From the sequence record SRR31156797_3020: a stretch of 35,713 bases of DNA; one strand, written 5' to 3'. Positions 1-17,190 of the stretch are shown piece by piece (within the stretch, counting starts at the first letter, position 1; every line of letters starts with the position of its first letter). The position numbers and the translations under genes were made by a program. The notes beneath the pieces are model-generated. The model was not told the DNA's origin. It saw only the letters and a program-made list of their open reading frames with translations, and did not search any database.

Positions 1-2
1 GA

Positions 3-1019
3 TTAAAAAGGCATGACGCGATTTCTGCCAAGTTTCTTCGCTTCATAAAGCTTTCTATCTGCCCGTTCGACTATTGCTTCTGGTGTGTCGTTTGGCATTT
101 TTTCAGCCACACCAAAAGAGGCGGTAATACTGCTCACTTGTTCGCTGGTGCGACGATCTTTCACGTTGAGCTTTTCAATCGAAGTACGCAGCATTTCCGC
201 AAATTGTCGTGCAACCCTTAGAGATTTGTGCGGAACCAAAAGGGCAAACTCTTCACCACCATAACGATAAGCGGTAATGCCCGCCTGACAGGTACTCTGC
301 AGACGTTTGGCGATTGCGCGGATCACCGTATCACCAAACAAGTGGCCGTACTCATCGTTGAAAACTTTGAAATGATCGATATCGAGGAAAATCAGGCTAA
401 GGGTTTCTTCTGCGTGGATCAATGAGGCTAAGTCATCATCAAAAGCGCGTCGGTTATACAAACCAGAAAGGCTATCAAACAGAGCCGCTTTATGAACCTG
501 AGCTAATTGTGTTTTTAAACGGGAAATCTCCTGACTGGCGTTGTTTAACTGATCATTCAGGAAGTTGGTTGAATGGCGTATTCCTTGTGATTCACTGACT
601 AAATCACGAATGACCTCCATCGCCTCTTCAATCGATAGGTTTTGATCTTGAACTTTTTCTAAATTGCTAAAGCTTCTGTCAATGACTTCAGAAAATGCGT
701 TAGTGTCCGATAGGGCATCATCCATAGAGCTTGAAAGCTCATGGACTAAAATTTCTACGTTTTGCTTTAGTTGGTTCACATTCGTTTCGGTTTTCGAGGC
801 TATGTAGTCTTTATAAAGTTGGTCACCCGTTGCAACCGGACAGAAACCAAAGCTGTTTAAAATATAATCAAGTTCTAGGTTCAGTTCTGGTATGGCGTTA
901 TCCACGTACGTATACCATAAGGCATAGTTAGCCGGCGTAGCAGCGATACGATGCTTCATCATCAGTGGTACGGTTTTTTTTAGATTTGAAGTTGCTTTTT
1001 TAAAGTCGTCTTCGTTCAT
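3..1019 (-). CDS. Cytoplasmic diguanylate cyclase (coiled coil + GGDEF), resembles Vibrio VdcA-type DGCs
   Basis: DSLSGLYNRRAF, LDIDHFK..ND.YGH..GD, YRYGGEEF and AKKLGRN motifs; no TM segment; no RxxD I-site before GGEEF. Confidence 0.93.
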   Translation of the reverse strand: MNEDDFKKATSNLKKTVPLMMKHRIAATPANYALWYTYVDNAIPELNLELDYILNSFGFCPVATGDQLYKDYIASKTETNVNQLKQNVEILVHELSSSMDDALSDTNAFSEVIDRSFSNLEKVQDQNLSIEEAMEVIRDLVSESQGIRHSTNFLNDQLNNASQEISRLKTQLAQVHKAALFDSLSGLYNRRAFDDDLASLIHAEETLSLIFLDIDHFKVFNDEYGHLFGDTVIRAIAKRLQSTCQAGITAYRYGGEEFALLVPHKSLRVARQFAEMLRTSIEKLNVKDRRTSEQVSSITASFGVAEKMPNDTPEAIVERADRKLYEAKKLGRNRVMPF

Positions 1020-1217
1020 CTTTTATTAGTTTTTTAAGGCGTCGTAAGTAATAAGTTAAGATTAGCGGAAATAAAGGGGCAGTGCTCTAAAAATAGCGTT
1101 TAATTGAGCCTTGTGGCATAGAATACTGTCAATTTTGATGTAACGATGTTTTAACTGACTGCTGAGATGAATGTGTTGTCGTTCACTATAGTCGACATCT
1201 ATTACTGCCCCCCACGC

Positions 1218-2111
1218 TTACAGCGTAGCGAGTTTGAGCTGGCGACGTTTTTTGGTGATGATAAGCAATTGAGGTAGGAGCGAAACAATGATCATCCCGA
1301 ACATCAAACTGTATTGATGAAGATCGTAGATTTCATTCATTAATAGCCCACCACACACAATGCCCGCAATTGGGTTTGCGATACCTGCAAAGGTAAAGTC
1401 AACAATCGACATTCTTTGTAACAGCCACACATAGAGGCTATACGCTATCGCTGTATTGAGCACAATAAGCCATAGTAGGCCAATAGTGTTACTTAGGTTC
1501 AACTGAGTCAGTGCAGAGACATAAGGTTCAGGTAGCGTTAGTGCGTGAATGATGGCAAACAGCGTTAATACGACACCGCCTATAATTAATTGCCAAGTTA
1601 ATACTGTCCACCAGTCTATTTTTCCACCTAATGATTGAGTCAAAGTCGAGCCTAAAACAATACATAAGATAGCGCACAGCATTGCGGTTAAACCAAGCGT
1701 ACTTAAGCGGATAGCCTGAGGATCAAATAGAAACCACGCCATGGCGATCAACAGGATGCCACTCACAATTTGAACAACTGATGGGGCTTTACGATTGAAT
1801 AACCAATGGAAAACCATCGCAAAGACAGGGACAGAAACCATACCGACACCTGATATTGCAGAAGGTAAAGTCATTGCCATGACGAAAATTAAGCTGAAGA
1901 ACGCTGCGATGTTCACCAGACCGATAGTGATTAGCGGTTTCCAGCTTCCTTTACTCGGCAAGCTCGGTTTTAGGGCAAGCAGAATAAGTCCTGCTGGCAA
2001 AGCGCGCAATGCACCCAGTAATAACGGTGGCCAACCTGCCAGCGTGTATTGAGTCACTGCGTAAGTCGTTCCCCAGAAAAAGGCGGGGATCATGGCAAAT
2101 AAAATATTCAT
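1218..2111 (-). CDS. pecM: EamA/DMT family transporter, PecM-like
   Basis: Start MNILFAMIPAFFWGTTY at 2111; PPLLLGALRALPAG motif; about 10 hydrophobic segments; divergent from a PecS-like MarR gene. Confidence 0.85.
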   Translation of the reverse strand: MNILFAMIPAFFWGTTYAVTQYTLAGWPPLLLGALRALPAGLILLALKPSLPSKGSWKPLITIGLVNIAAFFSLIFVMAMTLPSAISGVGMVSVPVFAMVFHWLFNRKAPSVVQIVSGILLIAMAWFLFDPQAIRLSTLGLTAMLCAILCIVLGSTLTQSLGGKIDWWTVLTWQLIIGGVVLTLFAIIHALTLPEPYVSALTQLNLSNTIGLLWLIVLNTAIAYSLYVWLLQRMSIVDFTFAGIANPIAGIVCGGLLMNEIYDLHQYSLMFGMIIVSLLPQLLIITKKRRQLKLATL

Positions 2112-2117
2112 ACTAAG

Positions 2118-2135
2118 TATCTTTATGTGAAGATA
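2118..2135. promoter_or_regulatory. Palindromic MarR/PecS-type operator TATCTT-N6-AAGATA (second degenerate copy at about 2177-2195)
   Basis: Perfect 6-bp arms in the pecM-pecS intergenic region; related TATCTTTACGTTGAAGTAT about 60 bp further on. Confidence 0.7.
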
Positions 2136-2241
2136 TTTTGCTGGCGAATTTATAGCAAAAATTAGTACTTGTAAAGTATCTTTACGTTGAAGTATTTTAT
2201 AACCCACTAGGTAACCGAAGAACTGAAGAGCAATAAAATTA

Positions 2242-2724
2242 ATGGATGCAGTGGATAGAGCGCTTGAACAATGGAATAAAGAGCGACCAGACCTTGATAC
2301 CACGCCAATGGCGATGATTAGTCGATTAATGCGTTTGGGTAAAATACTGGAAATGCGAATCGCGGAAGTGCACAAGCGCTATGGGTTAACCATGGGGGAG
2401 TTTGATGTACTTGCCACACTCCGCCGAGCTGGGGCACCGTATCGGTTAACGCCTTCGGAACTATTAGATTCCATGTTATTGACGTCCGGAGCCATGACTA
2501 ACCGGTTGGATAAGCTTGAAAAAAAATCATTAATTCTTCGTCACCATAGCAAAACGGATCGCCGTAGTGTTGAAGTTGAGTTAACCGACAAAGGATTCGC
2601 TTTGATTGAAGAACTGATTGTGGAGCATGTCAAAGCTCAAGAAGAACTTGTTCGTTCGTTGACTCAGCAAGAGCTACAACAAGTCGGGCAAAGCTTAGAA
2701 CTATGGTTAAGGACATTTGATTAG
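2242..2724 (+). CDS. pecS: MarR family regulator, PecS/UrtR-like
   Basis: N-terminal D.VD....QW..ERPDLD helix, EFDVLATLRRAG, LTPSEL, SGAMTNRLDKLE, DRRS wing motif. Confidence 0.85.
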   Translation: MDAVDRALEQWNKERPDLDTTPMAMISRLMRLGKILEMRIAEVHKRYGLTMGEFDVLATLRRAGAPYRLTPSELLDSMLLTSGAMTNRLDKLEKKSLILRHHSKTDRRSVEVELTDKGFALIEELIVEHVKAQEELVRSLTQQELQQVGQSLELWLRTFD

Positions 2725-2753
2725 GGTCAACAGATCCTAGTGTCGGAGGCAAA

Positions 2754-3125
2754 GTGAACATCATTGATACAAAACAGTTGGAAGAGTATTTATCACAGCT
2801 ACCTCAAGTTGAAGTCTGTTACCCTTTTGGGCCAGATCCCATGGTGTTCAAAATTCGCGGCAAAATGTTTGCCTATTTAGCGCTGGATAACCCCCTACCT
2901 TTTGTGACTTTAAAAGCACAGCCGCAGGATGGTGCGTTTTTGACAGACCAGTACTCGGCAATTAAACCCGGTTATCATATGAACAAGCGCCATTGGATAT
3001 CGGTATTGTTGAGTGGTGATGTTGAACCGTCAATGGCAGAAGAGCTTTGTTTGCGCTCTTTTCAGTTGGTGGTCAGTAAGCTTAAAAAATCCGATAGAGA
3101 AGCCATTCAACTATTAATGCCCTAA
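2754..3125 (+). CDS. MmcQ/YjbR family protein
   Basis: YPFG...VFKI.GKMFA and PGYHMNKRHWISV motifs; GTG start after GGAGG. Confidence 0.9.
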   Translation: MNIIDTKQLEEYLSQLPQVEVCYPFGPDPMVFKIRGKMFAYLALDNPLPFVTLKAQPQDGAFLTDQYSAIKPGYHMNKRHWISVLLSGDVEPSMAEELCLRSFQLVVSKLKKSDREAIQLLMP

Positions 3126-3127
3126 AA

Positions 3128-3160
3128 CAAAACATGCAGCTGAAGGGCTGCATGTTGTTG
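3128..3160. terminator. Bidirectional intrinsic terminator between convergent genes
   Basis: AACATGCAGC-TGAAGG-GCTGCATGTT stem at 3131-3156 with A-rich and T-rich flanks. Confidence 0.75.
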
Positions 3161-3176
3161 TTGTCGAGTTTGCTGC

Positions 3177-4103
3177 TTATACCGTATGAGAAGGCTGAGC
3201 CGAGGATTCGATTTGCTTCGCACCTCTTAGCATCGCTTCAATCAATTCGGTGGCGTTAAATTTCTCAAGTGCTTCATGGGCACCAACTTGATGCGCTCTA
3301 TCGACACATATCTCACTGGATAGCGAAGTATGCAAAATAATATACGCGTGGCTTAATGACGTATCATTTTGCACTTCAAAAGCCAGTTCGTAGCCATCTA
3401 AACCTGGCATTTCAATATCACTCACCAGAATATCAATCGCGTTGCCTTCGTTCGCTAACTTCTTCATTAAATCCGCTGCTTCTAAGCCATTTTTGCAGAT
3501 TTGATAAGGAATATTAATTCTGTCTAACGCGTCAGCAAGCTGCTTACGAGCAATCGAGGAGTCATCCACCAACAGAATGTTTAACGCTTTAAGTCTCTCG
3601 CGTTCGATATCGGTCAGCATCGGAACTTTGGTGGATTCATACTGCGGGTAGATTTTCGACAGTAGCAGTTCAACGTCTAATAGTTGAACGATATGATCGT
3701 TGTAGCGAGTAATACCAGTGACGAACACATTCTTACCCGCTGTGGTTGGGGAAGATTCAATCGAGCGCCAATCACAGTCAATGATCTTTTCGATACTGCG
3801 CACCATAAATGCCACCACAGTTCTCAAACAATCGGTCACGATCAAGTAGCATTTTTCATACTCACTTGGGTCTATTGGTCTAAAACCAATCGCCGCCGCC
3901 ATATCAATCACAGGAATGGTTAACTTACGGAAGTTTACCGTTCCTACTACATGGTGGTGAGAATAAGGAATTTGAGTCATAGGCATATAAGGCACTATTT
4001 CGCGTACTTTTAATGTTCCGATAGCGAACAACTGCTTTTGCAGGTTCAACGTAAACATTAACATCCCTTGAGACTGATTTGCCTTGCTGATTGTTTTAGC
4101 CAT
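3177..4103 (-). CDS. cheV: Chemotaxis protein CheV (CheW + receiver domain)
   Basis: FAIGTLKVREI and IPVIDM (CheW domain); ILLVDDS, SDIEMPGLDG and LHTSLS (receiver); start MAKTISKANQ at 4103. Confidence 0.93.
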   Translation of the reverse strand: MAKTISKANQSQGMLMFTLNLQKQLFAIGTLKVREIVPYMPMTQIPYSHHHVVGTVNFRKLTIPVIDMAAAIGFRPIDPSEYEKCYLIVTDCLRTVVAFMVRSIEKIIDCDWRSIESSPTTAGKNVFVTGITRYNDHIVQLLDVELLLSKIYPQYESTKVPMLTDIERERLKALNILLVDDSSIARKQLADALDRINIPYQICKNGLEAADLMKKLANEGNAIDILVSDIEMPGLDGYELAFEVQNDTSLSHAYIILHTSLSSEICVDRAHQVGAHEALEKFNATELIEAMLRGAKQIESSAQPSHTV

Positions 4104-4264
4104 GGTGCAACTACTTCTTAAACGGGTACTCATATCTATACTAACTGATATTACCGTATCATCAACGGCTGGTATTGATTTAGATAATGAAAGTTGAGAA
4201 AAGCGGGGTGCGTCGCTTTTTAGCTTGATGTAGACTCACGGCTTTCAAAATGGGAGAGAACAAG

Positions 4265-4543
4265 ATGGCAAAAACGGCAGCGGCCCTTCACATACTGGTT
4301 AAGCACAAAGAGCAAGCGGAAGATATCATTAAGCAGCTTAAAAAAGGCGCTAAGTTTCAAGTGCTGGCGAAAAAGCACTCTTTATGCCCTTCGGGTAAGA
4401 AAGGCGGCGATCTTGGCGAGTTTCGTCAAGGCCAAATGGTGCCTCAGTTTGATAAAGCCTGTTTTAAAGGAGAAATCTTGACGCCACAACTGGTTAAAAC
4501 CAAGTTTGGTTGGCATGTGGTGAAAGTGCTATACAGAACTTAA
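4265..4543 (+). CDS. ppiC: Parvulin peptidyl-prolyl cis-trans isomerase
   Basis: [35 protein letters not shown] motifs; 92 aa. Confidence 0.96.
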
Positions 4544-4763
4544 TGCTTTTTACGGCAAAGGCATACGATATTAACTTATTTTTCCCGAGAAACTGCCACC
4601 CATACCGAATATGACAGGTGATTAAGAAAAACTCGGCCCAAAGTTTCTTTTACCTTTAGCTAACCTATTGATTATAAATTGAACTGCCATTAAAAAGGCG
4701 GCATGATAGGACAATGAAATACTGTGAAAAGCCGTATAGATAGGGTTAGTTGTAGGGATAAAT

Positions 4764-5789
4764 ATGAAGTATCCAGTTCCATTAGGTAAAGGTAGTAGAG
4801 TTGCTATAACAGCATTTTCTTCAGGTGTTCCAAGTTCGCTTCACAAGCGTCTGGATATTGTAATCGAGAACCTAAAGAATCAAGGTTTCGAAGTCATTGA
4901 AGGTGAATGCCTGCGTGAAAATACGAAACATGTTAGTGCCTGTGCAAAACATCGGGCTGCGGAGTTTATGCAATTTCTGTGTGATGATACGATTAATGCA
5001 GTAATACCTCCTTGGGGAGGTGAATTTGCCATGGATATATTACCGCTACTTGACTATGAGAAATTGCAAACCGTTAAGCCCAAATGGATCTTGGGATATT
5101 CAGATGTAAGTACGGTTTCTACGGCTTTAATGACAAAACTCGGTTGGGTAACGGTTCATTGCTCAAACCTAATGGATCTTCATCCGAATGAGCCTGATAG
5201 GCTTACATCTAGCACTTTGAATTGGTTAACTAAGGCTGAAGGTTCAGATTTTGAGCAGCATTCATCAAAATATTATCAATTAGATGGAAGTTCATTTTCT
5301 GATGAGCCTAATTTCATTCTAAACGTGACAGAGCCAACAGTCTGGAAGCTATCAGGAAACCAAGAGGTTGAGTTCAGCGGTCGTCTTATTGGCGGTTGTT
5401 TTGACACTATGATGCACCTAATTGGCACTGAATATTTTGATATTCATCTTCTGCACAATAAATTCAAAGCAGATGGTCTCATACTCTATTTAGAAAATGT
5501 TGAAATGTCTCCAACAGTTTTTAAGAGAGCACTACAAAGCTTAAAGTATAAAGGTGTATTCGAACTCTGTAATGGACTGCTCATTGGGAGGAGCTCAGTA
5601 TTAGACAAATGTGGCAAAGACATCACTATTCAAGACGCATTAATTGAAGTTACTAAGAGCTTGGAAATTCCTGTTGTTTATGATGTGGATATTGGCCATT
5701 TACCACCAAATATGACATTACTCAACGGTTCATATGCTGAGGTCGTAGTAAATGGTAGTGCAGGAAAAATACGTCAGACGCTGAAATAA
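4764..5789 (+). CDS. S66 family LD-carboxypeptidase / MccF-like peptidase (cassette 1)
   Basis: PPWGGE, GYSD (catalytic Ser), GRLIGGC, ILYLE and DIGHLPP (His) motifs. Confidence 0.9.
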   Translation: MKYPVPLGKGSRVAITAFSSGVPSSLHKRLDIVIENLKNQGFEVIEGECLRENTKHVSACAKHRAAEFMQFLCDDTINAVIPPWGGEFAMDILPLLDYEKLQTVKPKWILGYSDVSTVSTALMTKLGWVTVHCSNLMDLHPNEPDRLTSSTLNWLTKAEGSDFEQHSSKYYQLDGSSFSDEPNFILNVTEPTVWKLSGNQEVEFSGRLIGGCFDTMMHLIGTEYFDIHLLHNKFKADGLILYLENVEMSPTVFKRALQSLKYKGVFELCNGLLIGRSSVLDKCGKDITIQDALIEVTKSLEIPVVYDVDIGHLPPNMTLLNGSYAEVVVNGSAGKIRQTLK

Positions 5790-5795
5790 TCAACG

Positions 5796-5917
5796 AACTA
5801 ACTGCCCAAGACAGACCACCAAGGCTCGGCGGTTTTGCTTCTGGTTAGGTTTGGTGTTTTATGGTGGTGTTTTTAACTTTTATGGTTTGTTGGCTGCCAC
5901 TTAACTGGGCGTTATGT
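5796..5917 (+). repeat. Degenerate attC site (Vibrio-repeat type), 122 bp
   Basis: Starts AACTAAC 7 bp after the stop; ends GCTGCCACTTAACTGGGCGTTATGT, a typical Vibrio attC right end; GT-rich middle. Confidence 0.75.
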
Positions 5918-5953
5918 GTCACAGATGTTCCCACAAAAATGGAGAGTAATGCT

Positions 5954-6565
5954 ATGCGATTTATCTATGTCATGGATCCTATGTGTGCTTGGTGCTTTGC
6001 TTTTCAACCTGAGTTGGAGCAATTCTTGGAAAAGCATCCAACGGCAGAGGTTGATTGGATAATGGGTGGCCTAGCTCCTGATAATGATGAACCTATGGAT
6101 GATAACCTGAAGGAAACCATTTCTTCTTATTGGTATCAAATCGAGAAGGTGTCTAACGTAACTTTTAATCATAGTTACTGGGAGTTGAACACACCTTATC
6201 GTTCAACCTATCAAGCTTGTAGGGCCGTCATATCCGCCGAAAACATGGTAGAAAGTAGCGCTGAGAAAATGGTAAAGGCTATCCAATCAGCTTATTACGT
6301 TGAAGCTAAAAATCCGTCGTTGAATCAAACATTGATTGACTGCGCTAAGTCGCTCAATTTGAGTGAAAGCCAGTTTGCACTCAAATTGAAATCGAAAGAA
6401 ATAGAGCAGCAGTTTCAGGAGCATTTATATATAGCAGCTCGTTTACAGGTAAGTGGTTTTCCGGCTCTTTTCTATGTCTCAGAAAGTAATCAGGCTTATC
6501 CTCTAGCGCTTGGATATTGTAAGTCAGAGGAGCTTTCAAAGCGATTTAGCCAAGTAAACAGATAA
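5954..6565 (+). CDS. DsbA/FrnE-like thioredoxin-fold protein (cassette 2)
   Basis: YVMDPMCAWC CxxC motif, MGGLAPD, VSGFPAL cis-Pro motif; ATG at 5954 after GGAGAG. Confidence 0.88.
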   Translation: MRFIYVMDPMCAWCFAFQPELEQFLEKHPTAEVDWIMGGLAPDNDEPMDDNLKETISSYWYQIEKVSNVTFNHSYWELNTPYRSTYQACRAVISAENMVESSAEKMVKAIQSAYYVEAKNPSLNQTLIDCAKSLNLSESQFALKLKSKEIEQQFQEHLYIAARLQVSGFPALFYVSESNQAYPLALGYCKSEELSKRFSQVNR

Positions 6566-6675
6566 CAAAAAGTTCGGCATACATGGCATTTGTTAGTATG
6601 CGTTAACTTTACGATTTATGGTGGTATGTGGCGACATTGGTATTACGTTACTCACCGCTTAAGCGTGCGTTATGC
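6560..6675 (+). repeat. Degenerate attC site, 116 bp, left arm partly deleted
   Basis: AGATAACAAA overlaps the stop codon; internal TGGCATTT..TATGCGTT..GGTGGTATG..GGTATT; ends CTCACCGCTTAAGCGTGCGTTATGC. Confidence 0.78.
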
Positions 6676-6691
6676 CTTTGGGGAGAAATAC

Positions 6692-7189
6692 ATGTCAATA
6701 CCAGAGCATTCTAAGTTGTTTGATTATGCCCAAGGGGCTTATTTCGCTGATAGCTATTCACGCGAAATTCCTAACAAAAATCAGACCGCACTCGATGTCT
6801 ATCTTGAAATCGCGAGACAAACACCTGCGTGGGTTTCATTGTTAATGGCAGCGCGAAATCGCATCGTATCTATGCTCGGTTTAAAGCACTTAGGCCGACT
6901 TCAGGATGCGAGTTCAGCGGAAAATCCAGCGAATATTAGTGTTGGTGAAAGAATCGGTATTTTTACGTTACACAGCAATAGTGATACTGAAATTGTCCTA
7001 GAGGACAGTGATAAACATCTAGATGTAAGAGTATCGTTTTTACTGGACGTAGTTGGCGATAAAATCACGGTTCACGCAACCACTGTGGTGCATGTACATA
7101 ATATGTTTGGCAAAGTGTATATGTTTTTTGTTGCTCCAGTTCACAAGCTCATCGTCCCTAGTACTTTGAATACGTTGGCAAAGGCATAA
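6692..7189 (+). CDS. DUF2867-like protein (cassette 3)
   Basis: YFADSY, P.WV..LM..RN.IV...GLK, IGIF, D.DKHLD.RVS, HN.FGKVYM..VAP.HK.IVP pattern; ATG at 6692 after GGAGA. Confidence 0.82.
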   Translation: MSIPEHSKLFDYAQGAYFADSYSREIPNKNQTALDVYLEIARQTPAWVSLLMAARNRIVSMLGLKHLGRLQDASSAENPANISVGERIGIFTLHSNSDTEIVLEDSDKHLDVRVSFLLDVVGDKITVHATTVVHVHNMFGKVYMFFVAPVHKLIVPSTLNTLAKA

Positions 7190-7270
7190 CAAATGCTTTA
7201 GATGGATTTGCAACGCGTATCGGTAATGACTTCTTCGCGTCACACTACGTAGCCCATTTCTATTTAAGCA
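7184..7270 (+). repeat. Truncated attC site (left half only)
   Basis: GCATAACAAATGCTTTAGATGGATTTGCAACGCGT matches the left arm of Vibrio repeats; no closing GTTRRRY found at the expected distance. Confidence 0.65.
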
Positions 7271-7356
7271 TCACTTGCGCTCATCAAATCTTAAAAATTA
7301 ATCATTTACGTCAATATTGCTTAATTATTGTCATTTCCGTAAGTTCACCGTCACTC

Positions 7357-7380
7357 TATAATTAATCAGCCATTTAATTA
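7357..7380 (+). promoter_or_regulatory. -10 box TATAAT overlapped by inverted repeat TAATTAA-N8-TTAATTA (probable TetR operator)
   Basis: TATAAT at 7357-7362; IR arms at 7359-7365 and 7374-7380, just upstream of tetR. Confidence 0.55.
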
Positions 7381-7394
7381 AAGAGACTCTACGT

Positions 7395-8057
7395 GTGACC
7401 ACCCAGAATAGAAAAGCAGGTCGTCCCAGGGACAACAATATAGACGTTAGGAAAAAGCTTATCGAGCATGCTCGTGAACTGTTCACGTCTATGCCTTACG
7501 ATAAAGTTTCAAATCGTCAAATTGCCAATCAAGCTGGTGTGAACATAGCGATGATTCACTATTATTTCGGTAATAAAGAAGGGTTGTTTGAAACGGTAAT
7601 ACGAGAAACGATCAATCCTATGAAAGAACGCATACAATTGATGGTCAAAGACAGTTCACAAAAGAACTTTCTCGACATTATGCGAACCTACTACCATGAA
7701 ATGTACAAAATTCCACAGTTTCCCCGTTTAGTGTTTCAAATCATGCACATGGATACTTCGGAGACGCAGCGAAAACTGTTCGAAAAAGTGTTCGCTGATA
7801 TCAGTCAACCCATGCAAACGGTGATGTTTGACAAGCTCGTTAACAGCAATATCCTCAAGCCTGCTGTTGAGCCTGAATTATGTAAAGTTTCCTATTTTAG
7901 CTTGATGGCCTTTCCATTTATTGCCCCGCCTGGGCTCCTTTCTCTCCACGGCATTGAGCTTTCAGAAGATTTCCTTAACCGGCTGCTTGAACACAACATC
8001 AAACTGATGACGGAAGGCATGCTACAACCCCAAAACTTGCAGGATGAACACTTATGA
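7395..8057 (+). CDS. TetR/AcrR family regulator of the efflux operon
   Basis: GRPR, IANQAGVNIAMIHYYFGNKEGLF HTH motif; stop overlaps the next start (ATGA). Confidence 0.93.
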   Translation: MTTQNRKAGRPRDNNIDVRKKLIEHARELFTSMPYDKVSNRQIANQAGVNIAMIHYYFGNKEGLFETVIRETINPMKERIQLMVKDSSQKNFLDIMRTYYHEMYKIPQFPRLVFQIMHMDTSETQRKLFEKVFADISQPMQTVMFDKLVNSNILKPAVEPELCKVSYFSLMAFPFIAPPGLLSLHGIELSEDFLNRLLEHNIKLMTEGMLQPQNLQDEHL

Positions 8058-9370
8058 AAATAAATAAAAAACTACTGTTTTTCCCGGCGCTTGCCATAGG
8101 GGTAATCACGTTAGTCGTTGCCATAAAACTTAAGCCTGATTTACCCGTTAAGCCTGCCGGCGACCGCGCTCGTTTGGTCGAAACTGTCCCGCTGCTACGC
8201 CAAGCTATCGCACCACAAGCAATTGGCTACGGCAAAATTGCGCCCAAGGTTGAATGGAAAGCCATCGCGGAAGTGACGGGCAAAATCGTGTACCGCCACC
8301 CTAAATTAGAAAAAGGTCAAATCCTTGAGGCCGGAACAGAAATACTGCGTATTGATCCGCTCGACTACGAACTTAAGCTGGTACAGGCACAGGCGGATCT
8401 TAGCTCTGCACAAACTTCTCTGGCTAAGCTAAATCAAGAACAGCGAAACCTAGAGCAAACCCTTGAAATTGAGCGCAACCGCTTAGTGATCGCCAATAAA
8501 GAGCTGGAACGTAAACAAAATTTACGTGCTAAAGGGCTCAATTCACAATCAGATGTTGACCAGCAAGAGCAAAGCGCGCTATCACAACGCAAGTTAGTGC
8601 TCGATATTGAAAATCAAATCGGTTTAATGCCTGACGAAAAACGGGTTGCCCAAGCTTTGGTCAAAGTGAATATGTCTAAAGTGGAAGAAGCGCAGCGTGC
8701 ACTGGAAAAAACCATCATCACTTTGCCTAGCGACCTACGTATTGCACAAGTTGATATCGAACAATATCAGGTTGTTAACCAGCAGCAAACCATGGTCACT
8801 GCACACGGTATGGATGTCATGGAAGTTGAGGCTCAGCTCTCTATCCATGATATGCGCACGCTTGCTTCGAGTCTTGGTAAAGTGAATCGCAACACATCAG
8901 GCATCCCCCAACCAGATATGACCTTTATTGACGCGAGTATTGAGTTCAGCAGTGGCAATATGAAGGCGAGTTGGCCTGCGAAAGTGAGTCGAATTAGTGA
9001 AACTGTAGACCCAGATCAGGCCACTGTCGGTGTGATTTTGGAGATTCGACAAGATTACCGTGAAATAAATCCAAGCTCACAACCACCACTGGTCAACGGC
9101 ATGTTCGTCAGGGCGTTTATCGAAGGTAAGCCGAATCCAAGTTGGGTGATTCCTGAACGATCACTGCATGGCGATAAAATTTATTTGATGGGCGATAATA
9201 ATAAGCTGGTGATTCAATCCGTCTCGGTTCTCTACCGACGTGATAACCAAGTCGTGGTAGAAGGGGATTTAGAGCAAGGTCAAAAGTTGATTCTCAATGA
9301 TCTGTTACCCGCGATTAACGGCATGTTGCTTAAAGAGGCTGACACTAGCCACGAGGAGTCTGAGTTATGA
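8054..9370 (+). CDS. RND efflux periplasmic adaptor (membrane fusion protein)
   Basis: N-terminal TM anchor, AEVTGKIV lipoyl half, long coiled coil, LVNGMFV motif. Confidence 0.92.
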   Translation: MKINKKLLFFPALAIGVITLVVAIKLKPDLPVKPAGDRARLVETVPLLRQAIAPQAIGYGKIAPKVEWKAIAEVTGKIVYRHPKLEKGQILEAGTEILRIDPLDYELKLVQAQADLSSAQTSLAKLNQEQRNLEQTLEIERNRLVIANKELERKQNLRAKGLNSQSDVDQQEQSALSQRKLVLDIENQIGLMPDEKRVAQALVKVNMSKVEEAQRALEKTIITLPSDLRIAQVDIEQYQVVNQQQTMVTAHGMDVMEVEAQLSIHDMRTLASSLGKVNRNTSGIPQPDMTFIDASIEFSSGNMKASWPAKVSRISETVDPDQATVGVILEIRQDYREINPSSQPPLVNGMFVRAFIEGKPNPSWVIPERSLHGDKIYLMGDNNKLVIQSVSVLYRRDNQVVVEGDLEQGQKLILNDLLPAINGMLLKEADTSHEESEL

Positions 9371-12300
9371 TCCGATTCTTCGCCAAACATCCAACCGCAG
9401 CCAACTTGCTGATGTTGTGTTTGCTGGTGCTGGGGGTGACCTCATTAACCACGATTAAGCGCGAAACTTTCCCAGCCTTCGATCCTGCTTACATCATGGC
9501 AGGCGTGGTCTATCCGGGTGCGTCTCCAAAAGAAGTAGAAGAAAGCATCTGTGTTCGAATGGAAGATGCGGTTGATGGTCTTGCAAATATCGAAGAGACT
9601 CAGTGTGAAGCGGTAGAGGGATCGGCAAGGCTGATATTAAAGCTTAACGATAAAGCTGACATCGGAAGAATGTTGGTCGATGTGCAAACCCAGATCAACT
9701 CGATCAATGACTTTCCAAATGAAATTGAGTCTCCTGTGGTACAGGAACTGGATTGGAATGAACCGGTTGTCGATGTGGCTATCACGGCAGATACCACGTG
9801 GCCAGAACTGAAAGCTTACGCAGAGCAGCTTAAACGAACGTTAAAGCTTGATTATGATGTTTCTCTGGTCACTATCGCAGGGTTTTCTGACCATCAGTAT
9901 CTTGTCGAGCTGGACTCGCAAGCCATACGCCAACTTGGCTTAAGTGTCGGCGACATTGCCACTCAAATTGGCCGCCAGAATATTAAATTACCGAGTGGTA
10001 ATATTGAAACGCCAGACAAGAACTTTCTAATCCGTTTTGATGAAAGGCGTATAACACCGGAGCAACTTGAATTGATCGTTGTGGGTTCGGGCGCAAATGG
10101 CTCACAGGTTCGACTTAAAGACATCGCTACCATTACTGACCGCTTTGAATTAGATGAGCAGAAAGTGCTTTTCGACGGTCACCCTTCAGCCTTGCTTAAA
10201 ATCAGTAAGAATAAAGAAGATGATGCGCTTAGAATTAAAGAGCGTGTTGCTCAGTTTGTTGAGCAGCAACAAGCCATCGCCCCTGATGGTGTCAAACTAG
10301 AACTCACTAATGATATCTCGTCTGTACTGTGGGACCGCCTAAGCATGATGTTCAACAATGGTTGGCAAGGTATCATACTGGTGTTCGCAACCATGTGGCT
10401 GTTCTTTAGTTTTCGTTATTCTTTCTGGGTTGCCGCTGGCTTACCGGTTGCTTTCCTTGGTGGCTTATTCCTGATGGCACAGCTCGGGCTGTCAATTAAC
10501 ATCATGTCTTTGGTAGGACTGTTGATGGCGATCGGTATTATGATGGACGATGCGATTGTTATTGCGGAATCCATCGCTTCTCATTTAGACAGAGGGGAAG
10601 ATGTCGACAATGCGGTCATCAAAGGCGTGAAAAAAGTCCTTCCAGGGGTTGTTTCTTCTTTCCTTACCACTGTGTGTATCTTCGGTAGCTTGTTGTTTTT
10701 GCAAGGCGAAATGGGTGCTGTGCTCAAAGCCGTTCCACAAGTGCTGATTCTGGTTCTGATGCTGAGTTTAGTAGAAGCGTTTCTTATTCTTCCTAATCAC
10801 TTATCGCATTCATTGCATAAAGCGAAGAATGAAAAACCACCTGTGAAATTTAAAAAGACACTGCTTGATGGTTTTGATAACTTTCGTAATACAACCCTAG
10901 TCAACGCAGTGGAAAAAGTGGTTGAGTTTCGCTACGCCTTTATCGGTGGGGTTATTACATTACTTTTGATTTCCATTGCTACTTTAGCTGGTGGTTTACT
11001 CAAGTTTCAGCCTTTCCCAGAGTTAGACGGTGATATCGCCGAAGCACGGATCATTCTTCCCCCGGGGTCATCACTTTCTCAAACCGAGGCCGTGGTTGAT
11101 AAGCTGGTTACGTCTGCTCAGAAGCTCGACAAAGAATGGACGCGAGATGTTGAAAATGGTGTCCCACTGATTGAGCATATTACCAGCCAGTTTAATACCA
11201 ATGCTGACGCCAACGAGTCGGGACCCCATATCGCCACCGTTCGACTGGATCTGCTCGGCGCTGAAAGTCGCAATACCGTGATTGATGAGTTCATTGACGC
11301 TTGGCGTCAAGATATTGGTGAGATGGCCGACCCTATTTCACTGGTCTTCAAACAGCCAACCATGGGGCCGGGTGGACGTGCGATTGAAATCCGCGCTAAA
11401 CACGATGATCTCGAGGAACTTAAAGCAGCTTCAATCGATATCCAGCAGTATCTTAACGAGTTTGACGGTGTGCATGGCGTGCTGGACGATATGCGAATGG
11501 GTAAAGAAGAGGTACTGGTCAAACTTCGCCCTGGCGCAGAAACTTACGGTATCAACGGCCAGTTGGTGGCTAACCAGCTACGTGCTGCTTTTTTTGGTCA
11601 GACCGCCGATGAAATTCAGGTTGGCGTTGAAAATATTTCAATTGAAGTGCGTCTCGCCAAAGTTCAAGCGGGCGATCTACAGCAACTGGCAAATTTTCCA
11701 ATCATCATGTCGGATGGCAGTCAGATACCTCTGGCAACCATTGCAACGTTAGATTTTCAACGTAACTATGTTCGAATTCAGCGTGTTGATGGCCTAAGAA
11801 CCATTAGCGTATTTGGTGATGTGGACAATACCAAAGCGAACTCAACCGCTATCATCGCTCAATTCCAACGTGAAGAAGCGTCTAAATTGATGGCGAAATA
11901 TCCGGGGTTGCGTTTCGATTTTGAAGGTCAAAGCAAGGATACTGCTGAAACGGGCGCATCAATGGGTAAAGGTTTTCTACTTGGCCTGCTCGGCGTATTT
12001 GCAATACTCAGTTATCAGTTCCGCAGCTATCTAGAGCCTGTCGTGGTTATGCTTGCGATTCCATTAGCGTTCATTGGCGTGGTTTGGGGACACATATTGC
12101 TCGGCCACTCTTTGAGTATGCCGAGTTTGTTGGGCTTTGTGTCGTTAGCTGGCATCGTGGTCAACGATTCGATCCTGCTCGTGCAGTATATTCGCCATCA
12201 CGTCGATGAAGGCGACAGTGTTCACGACTCGGTGGTGAAAGCGAGTCGTGAACGTTTCCGAGCGGTGTTTTTGACTTCAATGACGACAGCTGCGGGCTTA

Positions 12301-12468
12301 CTGCCTTTACTGACAGAAACCAGTTTGCAAGCTCAGGTCATTCAGCCTCTGGTTATCTCTATTGTGTTCGGTATTTTTGCTTCAACCCTGCTGGTGTTAT
12401 TTATGATCCCAGCGGCTTATTCGGTTCTTGCCGACTTTGGTTTGGTGCATAAACACGAAGAAATATAA
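9367..12468 (+). CDS. RND efflux transporter permease (AcrB/AcrD/AcrF family)
   Basis: 1033 aa; YPGASP.EVE, IGIMMDDAIVIAE proton-relay motif, GIVVNDSI, RFRAVFLTS. Confidence 0.96.
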   Translation: MIRFFAKHPTAANLLMLCLLVLGVTSLTTIKRETFPAFDPAYIMAGVVYPGASPKEVEESICVRMEDAVDGLANIEETQCEAVEGSARLILKLNDKADIGRMLVDVQTQINSINDFPNEIESPVVQELDWNEPVVDVAITADTTWPELKAYAEQLKRTLKLDYDVSLVTIAGFSDHQYLVELDSQAIRQLGLSVGDIATQIGRQNIKLPSGNIETPDKNFLIRFDERRITPEQLELIVVGSGANGSQVRLKDIATITDRFELDEQKVLFDGHPSALLKISKNKEDDALRIKERVAQFVEQQQAIAPDGVKLELTNDISSVLWDRLSMMFNNGWQGIILVFATMWLFFSFRYSFWVAAGLPVAFLGGLFLMAQLGLSINIMSLVGLLMAIGIMMDDAIVIAESIASHLDRGEDVDNAVIKGVKKVLPGVVSSFLTTVCIFGSLLFLQGEMGAVLKAVPQVLILVLMLSLVEAFLILPNHLSHSLHKAKNEKPPVKFKKTLLDGFDNFRNTTLVNAVEKVVEFRYAFIGGVITLLLISIATLAGGLLKFQPFPELDGDIAEARIILPPGSSLSQTEAVVDKLVTSAQKLDKEWTRDVENGVPLIEHITSQFNTNADANESGPHIATVRLDLLGAESRNTVIDEFIDAWRQDIGEMADPISLVFKQPTMGPGGRAIEIRAKHDDLEELKAASIDIQQYLNEFDGVHGVLDDMRMGKEEVLVKLRPGAETYGINGQLVANQLRAAFFGQTADEIQVGVENISIEVRLAKVQAGDLQQLANFPIIMSDGSQIPLATIATLDFQRNYVRIQRVDGLRTISVFGDVDNTKANSTAIIAQFQREEASKLMAKYPGLRFDFEGQSKDTAETGASMGKGFLLGLLGVFAILSYQFRSYLEPVVVMLAIPLAFIGVVWGHILLGHSLSMPSLLGFVSLAGIVVNDSILLVQYIRHHVDEGDSVHDSVVKASRERFRAVFLTSMTTAAGLLPLLTETSLQAQVIQPLVISIVFGIFASTLLVLFMIPAAYSVLADFGLVHKHEEI

Positions 12469-12693: not shown

Positions 12694-13716
12694 ATGAACA
12701 CAACCCTCAATGCTGATACGCCAGAAATTATCTTGACTGGTGATAGAGCGACAGGTCCATTGCATCTTGGTCATTATGTCGGTTCTTTAAAGCAGCGCGT
12801 TGCTTTGCAGTCCATTCACGAGCAAACGATCCTTGTTGCTGATATGCAAGGTCTTACTGACAACGCTCACAACCCGAAAAAAGTATCATCCAATATTCTA
12901 AATGTCGTTGCTGACTATCTCGCGGTTGGGATTGATGACTCTAAAACAACGATTTGCCTTCAATCACAACTCCCTGCTCTTGCTGAGTTGACGATGTATT
13001 ACAGTAACCTTGTCACCATCAGTCGGTTAGAGCGAAATCCGACCGTTAAAAGTGAAATCCAAAACAAAGGGTTTGAACGTTCTATCCCAGCAGGTTTTCT
13101 GACTTACCCTATATCTCAAGCGGCTGATATCACGGGGTTTAACGCATCTTTAGTCCCTGTGGGAGATGACCAGTTACCCATGCTTGAACAAACGAATGAG
13201 ATAGTGAGAAAGGTAAATTCGTTAGCGGGGCGTAGGGTTTTAAATGAGTGCAGACCTTTACTAAGTAAGGCATCGCGGCTTCCTAGTACCGATGGAAAAA
13301 ATAAGATGTCTAAGTCGATGGGTAACGCCATTAATCTTGGTGCTACTGAAAAAGAAATCTCTGCAGCGGTAAAATCGATGTATACCGACCCTAACCACTT
13401 AAAAGTTGAAGACCCCGGCAATGTTGAAGGGAATGTCGTGTTTACTTACCTCGATGCTTTTCATCCCGATGAGGGCTATATCAGTCAGCTCAAAGAGCAC
13501 TACCAACGTGGAGGCCTTGGCGATGGTACAACGAAAAAAGTGTTGGAAGAGTGCTTACAAGAAATGCTGCGCCCCATAAGAGAGAGAAGAGCGGAGTTTT
13601 TAAATGATAAGGCTCAGCTGATTGATATCTTAGTTAAAGGGAGCCAAATTTCTCGAGAAAAGACGGACAAAGTCCTTTTTGATGTGAAAGATATCTTTGG
13701 GCTCAACATATTCTGA
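12694..13716 (+). CDS. trpS: Tryptophan--tRNA ligase, auxiliary (TrpS2/TrpRS II-like)
   Basis: ILTGDRATGPLHLGHYVGSL (HIGH-like), YPISQAADI, VPVGDDQLP, KMSKS, SMYTDP motifs. Confidence 0.95.
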   Translation: MNTTLNADTPEIILTGDRATGPLHLGHYVGSLKQRVALQSIHEQTILVADMQGLTDNAHNPKKVSSNILNVVADYLAVGIDDSKTTICLQSQLPALAELTMYYSNLVTISRLERNPTVKSEIQNKGFERSIPAGFLTYPISQAADITGFNASLVPVGDDQLPMLEQTNEIVRKVNSLAGRRVLNECRPLLSKASRLPSTDGKNKMSKSMGNAINLGATEKEISAAVKSMYTDPNHLKVEDPGNVEGNVVFTYLDAFHPDEGYISQLKEHYQRGGLGDGTTKKVLEECLQEMLRPIRERRAEFLNDKAQLIDILVKGSQISREKTDKVLFDVKDIFGLNIF

Positions 13717-14158: not shown

Positions 14159-14376
14159 AGAGTTTCTCGGTAATTCTGATGCGCAGATTGTATCACTATC
14201 AGGTGACGGCTTTGTAGGGGGTTAGTTGCTGAAGATGTACCCGTGCCGATCATGGCAAAAACATCTTTGCCCCATTCGGTGTTACTAATCTCATTTGCTT
14301 AGCTTGAATTCCAGATTCTTTGACCAAATTTATCTAATGTAAATACTGACATGTTGAGTCTCTTATTTAAACAATA

Positions 14377-14736
14377 TTAACCAAACATAATTTCATCACC
14401 GACATGTAATGAATTCGGGCAATGTCCTATCACATGCACAGTTCCTGGTTGCTCTGGCTTGAGCTGTCCATCAAATTTAACCGTAATATGACCTAAATTG
14501 GCTAAATTTTGACTTGCAGCACTCCCGACTGCTGTGACGATAAAGTCTTTGTCTGCAATAAGTAATGTGCTTTGAGTCGTGATCGTTCCGATATGCTGCC
14601 CTTGATCGTGAATAAAGCAGTAGTCTTTCACGTCTTTTGGTGCAGTTTGATTAAATAAAATGATCATGTCTTCTTCTAGCGATTCATTCGCTAACATACC
14701 TATCTCAATAATTGTGGCTTTAAACTGGAAAGTCAT
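14377..14736 (-). CDS. srlB: PTS glucitol/sorbitol EIIA, second copy
   Basis: Start MTFQFKATIIEIG at 14736 after AGGTGG; MIILFN, YCFIH (phospho-His), NL.NLGHITVKFDG. Confidence 0.9.
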   Translation of the reverse strand: MTFQFKATIIEIGMLANESLEEDMIILFNQTAPKDVKDYCFIHDQGQHIGTITTQSTLLIADKDFIVTAVGSAASQNLANLGHITVKFDGQLKPEQPGTVHVIGHCPNSLHVGDEIMFG

Positions 14737-14744
14737 CGCCCCAC

Positions 14745-15725
14745 CTATTGGTATATGAACATAGATACAAACCATGCTAACAATACTGTTGGAGCACCTG
14801 TGATAAATCGGGAATACAACACAGAAGGTACTCCCACTTCTACGGTTTCCTGCTTCGCATCGGCAAGTCCTAAACCCACAGGAATAAAGTCGCAGGCTGC
14901 TTGTGAATTGATAGCGAACAAGGCGGGTAGTGCCAGATGAGGAGGAATTGCTCCTGTACCTATTTGCACACCGATTAGTACTCCTATGACCTGTGCAATC
15001 ACAGCTCCAGGGCCTAAAAACGGAGAAAATAACGGAAATGAACAAATTAGAGCTAAAACAATCAAGCCAAGTGGATTAGAAGATAGCGGCGTGAGTAGGT
15101 GGGCGACTAAATCTCCAAGGCCTGACGCAAGAATCACCCCAATCAACATCGAAACAAATGCCATAAATGGCAAAATAGTCTTTATCACTGTGTCTATGGT
15201 ATCTCGACCCGCTTGGTAAAATGTGGACATGACATTGCCCATCGACATGCCAACTTTGGCAATGATGCTACCACTTTGTTCACTTAACTTTTTATCTGTT
15301 TCGTAAGTCAATGGATGATCTTCGTTGATTTTTCCATTTTCTGGTTCGTCTACGTTGTCATGTTCCACGATGCTGATGCAAGATTCATCTACGGAAGAAG
15401 CATAGATTCCCTCATGAATAAACTGGGCAAGAGGTCCTGATTTTCCGGTTGCGTGAATATTTAGGGTATACAGATTTTTTTTGGGATATAAACCACAACG
15501 CAGAGTACCACCACAATCAATAACCACTAGGGCAATATCTTCATCTGCAATTATGTTTTTAAAGCCGTCAACTGCCTCAAGTCCTGTCAGTTGGCTAATG
15601 TAGTCGACAACTTTAGGCTTAGTCCCACCAGTGACATACAGTATTTTCTTTCCTGAGATTATTGATATATGAAGGGGCCCACCCCATCCTTGATTGCCCG
15701 CAACTACGCTTAACGTACGTTTCAT
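14745..15725 (-). CDS. srlE: PTS glucitol/sorbitol EIIBC (EIIB + EIIC1), second copy
   Basis: [24 protein letters not shown] (phospho-Cys), [26 protein letters not shown]. Confidence 0.93.
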
Positions 15726-16285
15726 GACTTGTTTCCGTCTGAAAAACTAACTTGGTCAGACAAGATTTTTCCTTGCTGTTTAGACACCATTGCCGTAGTG
15801 AAATCAGTTATCCAACCTCTGAAAAAATTTGAAACTAACCCGACCAATAGATAGCTCATTGCTAAAGGTGCTAAAGATAAACCAATTTGAGTCAAGCCAC
15901 TTGCTACACCGAGATAGATGAACAACTCACCTGGGTTAACATGCGGAAACATACCGTTCATAGAATGGCAACTATAAGAAGCCGAAGCATAGTAAGATGG
16001 TTTATAACGTTCAGGGAGAAACTTACCTAGGCTCAGAGTCATTGGATTGCAGAAAACAAATGTGCCAATCACAGGAAGAATTAAGTATCTAGAGACAGGA
16101 TTACTAGCGCATTTTGCAGCCAGTTTTTCAATTCGATGCTGACCAATAAAGCGGATTAGTGAATTCATGGCAATCAGCAAACATATCAACACTGGAAGAA
16201 CTCCTGTAACCATACTTACAAGGACTTCTCCACCTTTTTCAAACAACCCTAAAAACCACTCGGCACTTAAAGTGAAATACTCCAT
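15722..16285 (-). CDS. srlA: PTS glucitol/sorbitol EIIC2, second copy
   Basis: [44 protein letters not shown] at 16285 after AGGTGG. Confidence 0.93.
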
Positions 16286-16362
16286 AACGCCCACCTAAAT
16301 AGAGATACAACAGTCGGGCCATTTTGATACATAACGACAGGCTAAACACAATCAGTGTGTTG

Positions 16363-16384
16363 AAATGTGATTTCAATCATCAAA
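16363..16384. promoter_or_regulatory. CRP-like site upstream of the second srlAEB
   Basis: AAATGTGA-TTTCAA-TCATCAAA compared with consensus TGTGA-N6-TCACA. Confidence 0.55.
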
Positions 16385-16407
16385 GAAAAATTTTCAAATT
16401 AAAAATT

Positions 16408-17190
16408 TCATACCTGATAAACAGTAATTCCTTTGCTTTTCAATCCGTCTAAATGTTCTTCTGATAGATCTGTGTCAGTGACGACGATATCAACCAGATC
16501 TAGGGGAACAACAACATTTGGGCTTCTTCGACCAAATTTTGACGAGTCTAGTACAACAATAATTTGTTTGGCAGATTTGCACATCGCTTGGCTAACTTGA
16601 TAAGCTTCGTTGTAAGTCGTACAACCTTGAGTTAAATCAAAACCGTCAGCTCCAATAAAAAGCTTATCAAACGTAAAATGACTAAAGGCACTTTCCGCTA
16701 AACTTCCATGAAAGGAAGCTGAACGTTTTCTGTAAGTTCCTCCAGGCATAATCACCGTATGTTCGGAGTTTAGTTCGTTCATAGCATGAACAATATCCAG
16801 ACTATTTGTCATTAAAGTCAAGGACATAATTTTTTCAAACTCAGGAACCATTTGTAGTGTTGTACTACCACAATCTAGGATTATGGAGTCCCCATCTCGA
16901 ACTAACTGAGCTGCTTTTTCTGCAATACGGATTTTTTTATCAAGATTTAAAGTTTTCTTTTCATCCATAGCGATTTCTTCAGAAGCGCTCGTTGTAGCAC
17001 CATTGCTGGAAACTGCTTCCGCACTTCCGTAGCGTCTTGCCACAATGCCTTTCTCTTCTAAAGCTCTCAGATCGCTTCTAATCGTGGCCCCAGATGTCTG
17101 GAAAATAGAGGCAAGATCATTTACTGCTGTTTTGCCGTTCTTTTGGAGGTAAGAAACCAACTGACTTTGTCTGCTATCAATACTCATCAT
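16408..17190 (-). CDS. srlR: DeoR family glucitol operon repressor
   Basis: SGATIRSDLRALE HTH, IILDCGSTT, MTNSL, GGTYRKRSASFHG, FDKLFIGADG, DSSKFGRRSPNVV. Confidence 0.92.
   Translation of the reverse strand: MMSIDSRQSQLVSYLQKNGKTAVNDLASIFQTSGATIRSDLRALEEKGIVARRYGSAEAVSSNGATTSASEEIAMDEKKTLNLDKKIRIAEKAAQLVRDGDSIILDCGSTTLQMVPEFEKIMSLTLMTNSLDIVHAMNELNSEHTVIMPGGTYRKRSASFHGSLAESAFSHFTFDKLFIGADGFDLTQGCTTYNEAYQVSQAMCKSAKQIIVVLDSSKFGRRSPNVVVPLDLVDIVVTDTDLSEEHLDGLKSKGITVYQV

Follow-up and report, generated by a model that had tools for sequence, protein, structure and literature searches.

Positions 4661-7256 of the window, the name used here for the whole 35,713-nt stretch of DNA from sequence record SRR31156797_3020 that was analysed, very probably constitute an integrase-less integron cassette array, or CALIN (a group of clustered attC sites without an integron integrase), situated in variable DNA downstream of the ppiC gene of a Vibrio. 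The array consists of an 88-nt attI-like site, called the head in the following, and of three cassettes whose cargo genes encode, in array order, an S66 LD-carboxypeptidase, a DsbA-like protein and a DUF2867 protein (4745-7256). CALINs are common and the manner of their origin is unsettled, and the present locus displays cassette genes that are kept by purifying selection while their recombination sites rot, by which cargo is turned into ordinary chromosomal genes. Copies of the head occur at unrelated loci in roughly one in four of the Vibrio species searched, and wherever this was checked they lie apart from the integrase gene intI. Judged from its sequence, it looks like a docking platform that collected cassettes and not like a random secondary site, since the beginning of the array coincides exactly with the G|TT of a conserved site that heads integrase-less arrays in many Vibrio genomes. 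We tentatively suggest that the head family, composed of a roughly 90-nt core and, upstream of it, a looser stretch of about 190 nt, could be a free-standing docking and expression platform served in trans by one integrase encoded elsewhere in the genome.

Class assignment and the three cassettes

The array is assigned to the CALIN class because none of the 34 open reading frames (ORFs) scanned in the 35.7-kb window matched an integrase family (E 1e-5), in line with the original prediction made from the bare sequence, and because two significant attC sites are present, located 643 nt apart on the + strand and accompanied by the stump of a third. According to Cury 2016 (PMC4889954), a CALIN comprises at least two clustered attC sites with intI absent within 4 kb; here intI is missing across the entire window, whose ends lie 4.7 kb and 28 kb from the array. 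The arrangement of a complete integron, with intI adjoining attI and the array, is not found either, as ppiC ends 117 nt before the head and the window contains no intI. With the CALINs described there the locus shares at least two attC sites on the same strand, cassette ORFs between them, the lack of a nearby intI, small size and relatives with a complete integron elsewhere; it differs from them by a recognisable conserved attI-like head and by visibly eroded attC sites. Thus, the locus belongs to a known kind, and its head is possibly undescribed.

The attC sites were identified with the covariance model R1, which was trained on 48 attC sites taken from three foreign arrays (those of genomes G035 and G138 and of V. 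tubiashii), is distinct from IntegronFinder's own model, and was run on all 35,713 bases of both strands with filters off. Such a check had been proposed together with the original prediction, and it recognised attC1 at 5792-5917 (43.6 bits, E 2.7e-9) and attC2 at 6560-6675 (44.9 bits, E 1.2e-9) at the 3' ends of the first two cassettes, a weak match to the third site at 7184-7276 (14.7 bits, E 0.09), whose right half is borrowed from backbone sequence, and no further match below E 1 in the window. All cassette junctions fall at the G|TT of the core site, and in each cassette the core at the 5' end (G|TTRRRY) and the inverse core at the 3' end (RYYYAAC) are complementary to each other. The three pairs had been pointed out beforehand, and all can be read directly from the sequence: GTTAGTT at 4745-4751 with AACTAAC at 5796-5802 (7/7), GTTATGTGT at 5911-5919 with ACAGATAAC at 6558-6566 (8/9, one mismatch) and GTTATGCCTTTG at 6669-6680 with CAAAGGCATAAC at 7179-7190 (12/12, extended to 23 nt at 83% complementarity). 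Equally as described before, genes 2 and 3 terminate within ATAAC (stop codons at 6563-6565 and 7187-7189, respectively), and the spacers of 122 nt (attC1) and 116 nt (attC2) end in the similar 15-mers CTTAACTGGGCGTTA and CTTAAGCGTGCGTTA, with a 20-nt repeat that is 80% identical between them. Each of the three cassette ORFs is preceded by a Shine-Dalgarno-like GGAG.

Homologues were searched with window positions 3177-9370 against 285 Vibrio genomes, and the three units were recovered separately, each in different genomes, at 86-94% nucleotide identity. At the protein level, cassette homologues with 84-95% identity are present in arrays of other Vibrionaceae, two of which are intI-linked, intI lying about 16-33 kb away on their own contig, and each of the three genes was also found in integron arrays as a cassette whose boundaries are the same, with gene 1 in G035 and G133, gene 2 in G083, and gene 3 in G138, G071 and V. 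tubiashii; the comparison with other arrays that had been suggested is thereby answered in favour of cassettes. Cassette 1 is 88% identical to the G035 and G133 cassettes over 4745-5801, and in G035 the homologue occupies an array position between attC sites with identical GTTAGTT and AACTAAC cores, with intI about 11 kb away on the same contig. For cassette 2 the similarity is limited to 5913-6569 in G245, G083 (two copies), G282 and G022 (86-94% nucleotide identity), and the homologues in G083 are flanked by attC sites that score 96-107 bits with model R1. Homologues of gene 3 with 84-92% amino acid identity reside in arrays of V. tubiashii (locus L004), G138 (two copies), G071 and Pseudoalteromonas, with the G138 intI about 24 kb from the homologue array on the same contig. 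Nucleotide matches to cassette 3 from the search of 285 genomes cover about 6584-7216 (G138 twice, G071, G077 and V. tubiashii), and seven aligned gene 3 loci can be aligned from CGTTATGCC up to GGCATAACAAA (about 6670-7190).

That the core and inverse-core matches arose by chance in AT-rich intergenic DNA and that the three genes are ordinary chromosomal ones has a negligible probability. Single-strand folds that are no better than those of shuffles (z 0.4 to 0.9) would fit such a coincidence, as would the lack of a match in Rfam, where the attC family was absent from a search of 4000-8000 at E up to 10 and chance snoRNA-like matches alone were returned, but covariance-model E-values of 1e-9 and the exact boundary-to-boundary similarity with array cassettes of several genera would not. 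The three units are true integron cassettes of Vibrio superintegron type, as had been proposed, given their R1 matches and the homologous cassettes in Vibrionaceae arrays. With Vibrio superintegrons the window shares the attC family (116-126 nt, beginning with TAACAAA and ending with CTTAAC..GGCGTTA), the cassette genes, their boundaries and their orientation; in contrast to them, it has no intI, only three cassettes, damaged L boxes and a truncated last attC.

The cargo itself is preserved. The three cassette ORFs are full length as compared to their homologues, intact and under purifying selection, with a ratio of nonsynonymous to synonymous substitution rates (dN/dS) of 0.07-0.17 in 16 of 16 comparisons (0.08 for gene 1 and 0.07-0.13 for gene 2) and stop codons in none of the subjects, the ratios being pairwise values that cannot be assigned to the window's own lineage. 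In sum, the units are cassettes by descent whose mobility has probably been lost.

As a separate observation, gene 1 cassettes carry identical core and inverse-core 7-mers and different attC subtypes, the site after gene 1 measuring 97 nt in the superintegron of G035 (L034:7305-7401) and in G133 versus 122 nt in the window (5796-5917). The inner attC of the gene 1 cassette has been exchanged or homogenised independently of the gene.

Table 1. Features of the cassette array and its immediate neighbours (window positions)
Feature	Position	Length	Strand	Description
ppiC	4265-4543		+	PPIC-type rotamase; Pfam Rotamase_3, E 6e-21; last conserved core gene before the variable region
Cassette array with head	4661-7256		+	Head, then three co-oriented Vibrio-type cassettes
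attI-like head (putative docking site)	4661-4748	88 nt	+	Begins TAACC, ends GGGTTA; crossover between G4745 and T4746
Cassette 1	4746-5911		+	Gene 4764-5789, 341-aa S66 LD-carboxypeptidase/MccF-like; Pfam Peptidase_S66 and S66C
attC1	5796-5917	122 nt	+	R'' AACTAAC 5796-5802; R' GTTATGT 5911-5917; L box degraded
Cassette 2	5912-6669		+	Gene 5954-6565, 203-aa DsbA-like thioredoxin-fold protein with CAWC motif; Pfam DSBA and Thioredoxin_5
attC2	6560-6675	116 nt	+	R'' AGATAAC 6560-6566; R' GTTATGC 6669-6675
Cassette 3	6670-7222		+	Gene 6692-7189, 165-aa DUF2867 protein; Pfam DUF2867, E 2e-34; carries attC stump
attC3, truncated	7184-7222	~39 nt	+	R'' GCATAAC, L'' and start of stem kept; right half missing
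Spacer after stump	7223-7256	34 nt	+	Between attC3 stump and tetR backbone; insertions/deletions among near relatives
TetR regulator gene and upstream region	7257-8057		+	Pfam TetR_N; regulator of MFP-RND efflux operon; right border of array

The attI-like head and its relatives in Vibrio genomes

The original prediction set the left border of the array at 4745, a position that falls at the end of the head, and missed the 88-nt site. The head shares 74-83% identity with an element for which 66 of the 285 Vibrio genomes gave a match; a genome carries no more than three copies, which lie at unrelated loci. In the core of about 90 nt, as compared in 32 fetched copies, 53 columns are at least 90% conserved and the window mismatches at four, two of them beside the crossover, while about 190 nt upstream of the core are conserved more loosely. 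The copies end in ..AGCGTTA or ..AACGTTA in 29 of 32 cases, and divergence begins from the next base onward. Downstream of the head and on the same strand, R1 detected an attC in 10 of the 11 loci that could be assessed, once only weakly, and likewise in 10 of 20 others; upstream, a single weak partial match (L061) was obtained in the 32 loci, with a search range of 1.9 kb in 12 and of 0.6 kb in the other 20. Genes upstream of the heads are ordinary and differ from locus to locus (for example SBF, MatE, GNAT/LysR, EamA, ABC permease, BREX, DNA polymerase A and TnsD-like), and those downstream are typical cassette cargo. When the 7-mer that spans the head junction is compared with the inverse core of the attC that comes first downstream, the two are complementary at 7/7 positions in 10 of 19 loci, the window included (eight established by script, L083 and the window by eye from printed sequences), and at 6/7 in two more. 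Because of this complementarity GTTA represents the recombination point, and in the window cassettes are accordingly joined at the G|TT of the attI-like site (GTTAGTT/AACTAAC, 7/7).

The last 57 nt or so of the head resemble true attI sites, which are positioned about 200-250 nt upstream of intI in G035, G138, G255, G254, G252 and G120; the shared part includes AAAGCCGTATAGAAAGC|GTTA with an identical crossover position (G|TT), after which varying first cassettes follow. A profile of these six intI-adjacent sites has its best match in the window at 4694-4750 (E 4.7e-4, 17.2 bits), ending at the cassette junction, and also matches 11 of 12 orphan heads. A true attI adjoins intI, and IntI binds and recombines it in double-stranded form. 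Unlike the true Vibrio attI, the head is located away from intI, is dissimilar in its left 30 nt or so (TAACCTATTGATTATAAATTGAAC) and in the 190 nt upstream, and is found up to three times in a genome, each time at an unrelated locus. In none of the 15 genomes that have both does a full-length head adjoin intI, as it does not in the window; none is within 5 kb, and the nearest, in G035, is about 15 kb away. Furthermore, intI was not found at E 1e-60 in 17 of 30 head-bearing genomes, some of those assemblies being incomplete.

These distances bear on the possibility that the array is what remains of a once complete integron, possibly the main one of the species, which would have lost intI, together with the intergenic region between intI and attI, by a deletion in place. 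An attI-like site at the start of the array only 117 nt from ppiC would be expected in this case, loss of intI is a recognised route to CALINs according to Cury 2016 (PMC4889954), and the search for a second intI was confined to the 35.7-kb window. Such a deletion is nevertheless an unlikely origin, given that the head is never found within 5 kb of intI in the 15 genomes with both, that its part to the left of the last 57 nt or so is unlike true intI-attI regions and yet conserved among orphan copies, and that neither the list of ORFs nor the similarity comparisons revealed an intI fragment in 4544-4660. Since the left part of the head is conserved among the orphan copies, any deletion of intI would predate the spread of the head family and would not have taken place at this locus.

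The reading of the head as a separate docking platform can be illustrated with G035, in which the order is intI, attI, an array with 19 attC sites, a MatE gene on the other strand, a head and a second array with at least 26 attC sites. The G035 superintegron is thus bipartite (contig C1, 1988000-2020673; L034, L059, L080 and L044), and its head-led array starts about 3 kb past the end of the intI-linked one. Two other identities of the head were considered and rejected. It is not the ordinary attI of a resident integron, as the true attI sites of G059, G245 and G288 (ending in GTATAAGAACTGTTA) are unlike it and those of G035 type share with it only the last 57 nt or so; nor is it an internal gene-less cassette, as an upstream attC is essentially absent and the upstream genes are ordinary and locus-specific. 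An exact 19-nt head pattern run against genome contigs was uninformative, with 12 of 13 matches in unrelated phyla (chance in AT-rich DNA) and one in Vibrio, and Rfam gave no match for the four head loci submitted. In six loci (L059, L060, L063, L064, L066 and L067) a hairpin with compensatory changes in its arms forms the beginning of the looser upstream part, about 270-300 nt upstream of GTTA, and is followed by GCCCCATTCCTTCTCAG; it is terminator-like and might insulate the array from upstream transcription.

Several described systems resemble the head in part. In the Delta-attI-type cassettes of mobile integrons, as far as described in PMC12901181, non-coding integron parts also occur away from intI, and gene-less promoter cassettes of Vibrio superintegrons are non-coding and can drive the expression of downstream cassettes according to the corresponding account (PMC11014356). 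Both of these are situated inside integrons between att sites, whereas the head has no upstream attC and starts arrays at ordinary chromosomal loci; it may have a promoter role, which is putative. A description of a conserved, intI-independent attI-like head of Vibrio arrays was not found in full-text literature searches. According to Cury 2016 (PMC4889954), IntegronFinder skips the attI of chromosomal integrons, the sequence of which is unknown for most integrons. Head-led arrays would be filed as anonymous CALINs by standard tools because these do not look for a chromosomal attI.

If the head indeed works in trans, integrons would be multi-site systems instead of having one platform per integrase, and Vibrio genomes would run several satellite arrays beside the classical superintegron, that of G035 counting at least 26 attC sites. 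Platforms would then persist or spread even in species where intI was not found (17 of the 30 head-bearing genomes), and CALINs would have an origin other than integrase loss or random secondary-site insertion.

Eroded recombination sites and the origin of the array

The original prediction had the left arms of the first two attC sites no longer matching their right arms and the last site truncated, and both statements hold. Paired R and L boxes together with extrahelical bases are required for attC recombination. Base pairs were counted over the 19 pairs of the model in an alignment of 111 R1 hits, in which 60 sites of intI-linked arrays retain 15-19 pairs, 46 of these sites being from the R1 training set and fitting by construction and the 14 non-training sites retaining 16-19. 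The window sites retain 13/19 (attC1) and 9/19 (attC2); their R boxes keep 3-4 of 4 pairs, and their L boxes are reduced to 5/8 in attC1 and 3/8 in attC2, so that a folded attC with both boxes paired is not seen. Moreover, alignment to the attC sites that follow the gene 2 cassettes of G083 and G022 reveals that attC2 lacks about 12 nt exactly at the position of the L'' box, which is gone. At the end of the array, the third site can be aligned to the intact attC sites of G138 and G071 only up to about 7222 (BLAST end 7216), and from 7257 onward the sequence corresponds to the cassette-free tetR region of G059. A full-length attC3 with a mutated R' (CACTTGCG) was considered and rejected, as this stretch aligns to the cassette-free region upstream of tetR in G059. 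The gap in attC2 and the truncation of attC3 are stronger evidence of decay than the pair counts. Joints that skip a cassette were not seen in the contigs of four runs; as contigs cannot show rare events, this does not speak against excision.

With regard to origin, integrase loss, rearrangement and secondary-site insertion have been proposed for CALINs. According to the original prediction, the cassettes left the superintegron to land between ppiC and an efflux operon and are now being fixed as chromosomal genes. The eroded sites and the intact, selected ORFs agree with the second half of this statement; the landing between ppiC and tetR is not supported in this form, the array starting at a conserved attI-like site. 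In its explicit form this view would have one or more cassettes excised from the superintegron and integrated by IntI between ppiC and tetR, at a secondary site of the non-specific attG type, where they now decay. It would account for superintegron-type cassettes in a window without intI, and cassette insertion outside att sites is documented (10.1101/2022.09.11.507474) and is listed as one origin of CALINs by Cury 2016 (PMC4889954). From what is described in the former source, attG insertions and SALINs (single attC sites lacking integron integrases) likewise hold cassettes outside a complete integron that may become fixed; attG sites, however, differ greatly from att sites in sequence and structure, whereas the insertion point in the window is attI-like, conserved and reused, the 88-nt site being matched in 66 of 285 genomes and not an arbitrary chromosomal sequence. 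An attG insertion should furthermore leave the distal attC complete up to its G, but attC3 is cut after about 39 nt, and neither a non-att insertion site nor a complete distal attC is found here. Also, tetR does not adjoin ppiC in G245, G059 or V. tubiashii, so that no conserved interval is available as a target. Secondary-site insertion is on these grounds improbable.

Under the preferred reading, in which the head serves as a docking platform, an IntI encoded elsewhere would have inserted the cassettes successively at the head by attI x attC recombination. The mismatched L box of attC1, the loss of the L'' box from attC2 and the attC3 stump that abuts the tetR promoter region would then have frozen the array, the two substitutions beside the crossover in the head being part of its present damaged state, and the cassettes would now be effectively immobile. 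Their transcription could proceed by read-through from ppiC, which has the same orientation, or start at a promoter within the head. A scan of 4200-7500 gave no terminator-like site on the + strand.

A number of points weigh against this reading, to which the pairwise nature of the dN/dS values also belongs. The intI search extends over the 35.7-kb window only, and both an IntI elsewhere in the genome and the non-remnant status of the array are things we infer. The attI interpretation of the head would follow from similarity only, and its 17.2 bits are the weakest score among the heads found; as TAAC stands at its beginning and GTTA at its end, it may instead be a folded attC-like site. No downstream attC was matched by R1, a narrow model, in 11 of 31 assessable head loci. 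A promoter scan of 4200-7500 yielded fewer promoter-like sites than shuffled sequences and none placed to serve the array. As to decay, low pair counts are also observed in arrays of other species (9/19 at L004:2455-2580 and 11/19 at L001 and L006), R1 is tuned to one Vibrio clade, and pair counts alone are no proof of lost function. The single-strand DNA folds of the bottom strands are no better than shuffles (z -0.1 to 0.9); because many intact 126-nt attC sites likewise fold no better than shuffles, their minimum-energy fold being without long-range pairs, fold energy is unusable as a measure of decay.

Surroundings of the array and its persistence in related populations

The flanks of the array differ between genomes. 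Similarity to G245, G059, G145 and G288 stops at 4539-4545, directly at the end of ppiC. In G245, the closest genome compared, window positions 2-4539 (86% identity) and 28635-35713 (82-87%) are found on one contig with 4.1 kb between them, and because these flanks are only 4.1 kb apart, 4540-28634 (about 24 kb) represents variable DNA downstream of ppiC. A comparison of the ppiC-tetR interval across strains had been suggested originally; such a conserved interval does not exist, since ppiC is followed by this variable DNA and the two flanks, ppiC and tetR, are on different contigs in G245. The module of tetR and the two genes after it, an adaptor (membrane fusion protein, MFP) and a permease of the resistance-nodulation-division (RND) type according to NCBIfam, extends from 7257 or 7282 to 12468 and shows 89-90% identity between the window, G245:C8 and G059:C2, each time in a different context. 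As the core flank is only 73% identical to G059, the module moves too. The right border lies at 7257 in the comparison with G059 (90% identical from there) and at 7282 in that with G245 (90-95%), and no similarity was found for 7223-7256 in comparisons with related genomes. The G245 module also adjoins a cassette remnant, which includes the gene 2 cassette, has a different last unit and joins the module 25 nt further right. In G059, G245 and G288, intI is on another contig than the attC-bearing loci that resemble the window.

The junctions of the array were traced in contigs of public runs from two studies distinct from the probable source, X5, X6 and X8 belonging to one and X2 to the other. 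The passage from ppiC through the head into cassette 1 is bridged by contigs of X6 (4498-4841), X5 (4643-4868) and X8 (4711-4924) with no difference in any of them, attC1 by an X2 contig (5589-6018), the transition from attC2 to gene 3 by X8 (6559-6777) and X5 (6598-6814), and that from the attC3 stump to tetR by X8 (7182-7420), with 12-15 additional letters at 7219-7224 in contigs of X5 and X8. Since contigs of other studies bridge the same junctions, the array persists stably in related populations, with insertions and deletions making its broken end variable. X2 is without contig cover over 6579-7256, and in one of its contigs 16 unmatched letters precede the start of the match at 7257; a relative that lacks cassette 3 may be hinted at here, though gaps in contig cover prove nothing.

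Some minor features were recorded at the ends of the array and beyond. In V. tubiashii T33 (L004:6489-6620) the DUF2867 homologue is also the last cassette, its attC is likewise truncated with a mutated inverse core, and a strong terminator hairpin follows 3' of the truncated site, so that the end situation parallels that of the window. An exact 12-nt direct repeat, GGCAAAGGCATA, brackets the array, with one copy at 4554-4565 just past the ppiC stop codon and the other at 7177-7188, where gene 3 ends and R'' of attC3 is overlapped; roughly estimated, chance alone would produce about 0.3 pairs of this kind in 3 kb. In the variable region, a sorbitol/glucitol phosphotransferase system (PTS) region at 14265-22923 with srlA and srlE duplicated is 98-99% identical to G245:C2:158141-166800, as compared to 82-91% for neighbouring core genes, and looks like a recent exchange. 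Also within the variable region, at 12694-13716, is a tryptophan-tRNA ligase gene, perhaps an extra copy, which has 75% identity to G059:C1:1459099-1460291.

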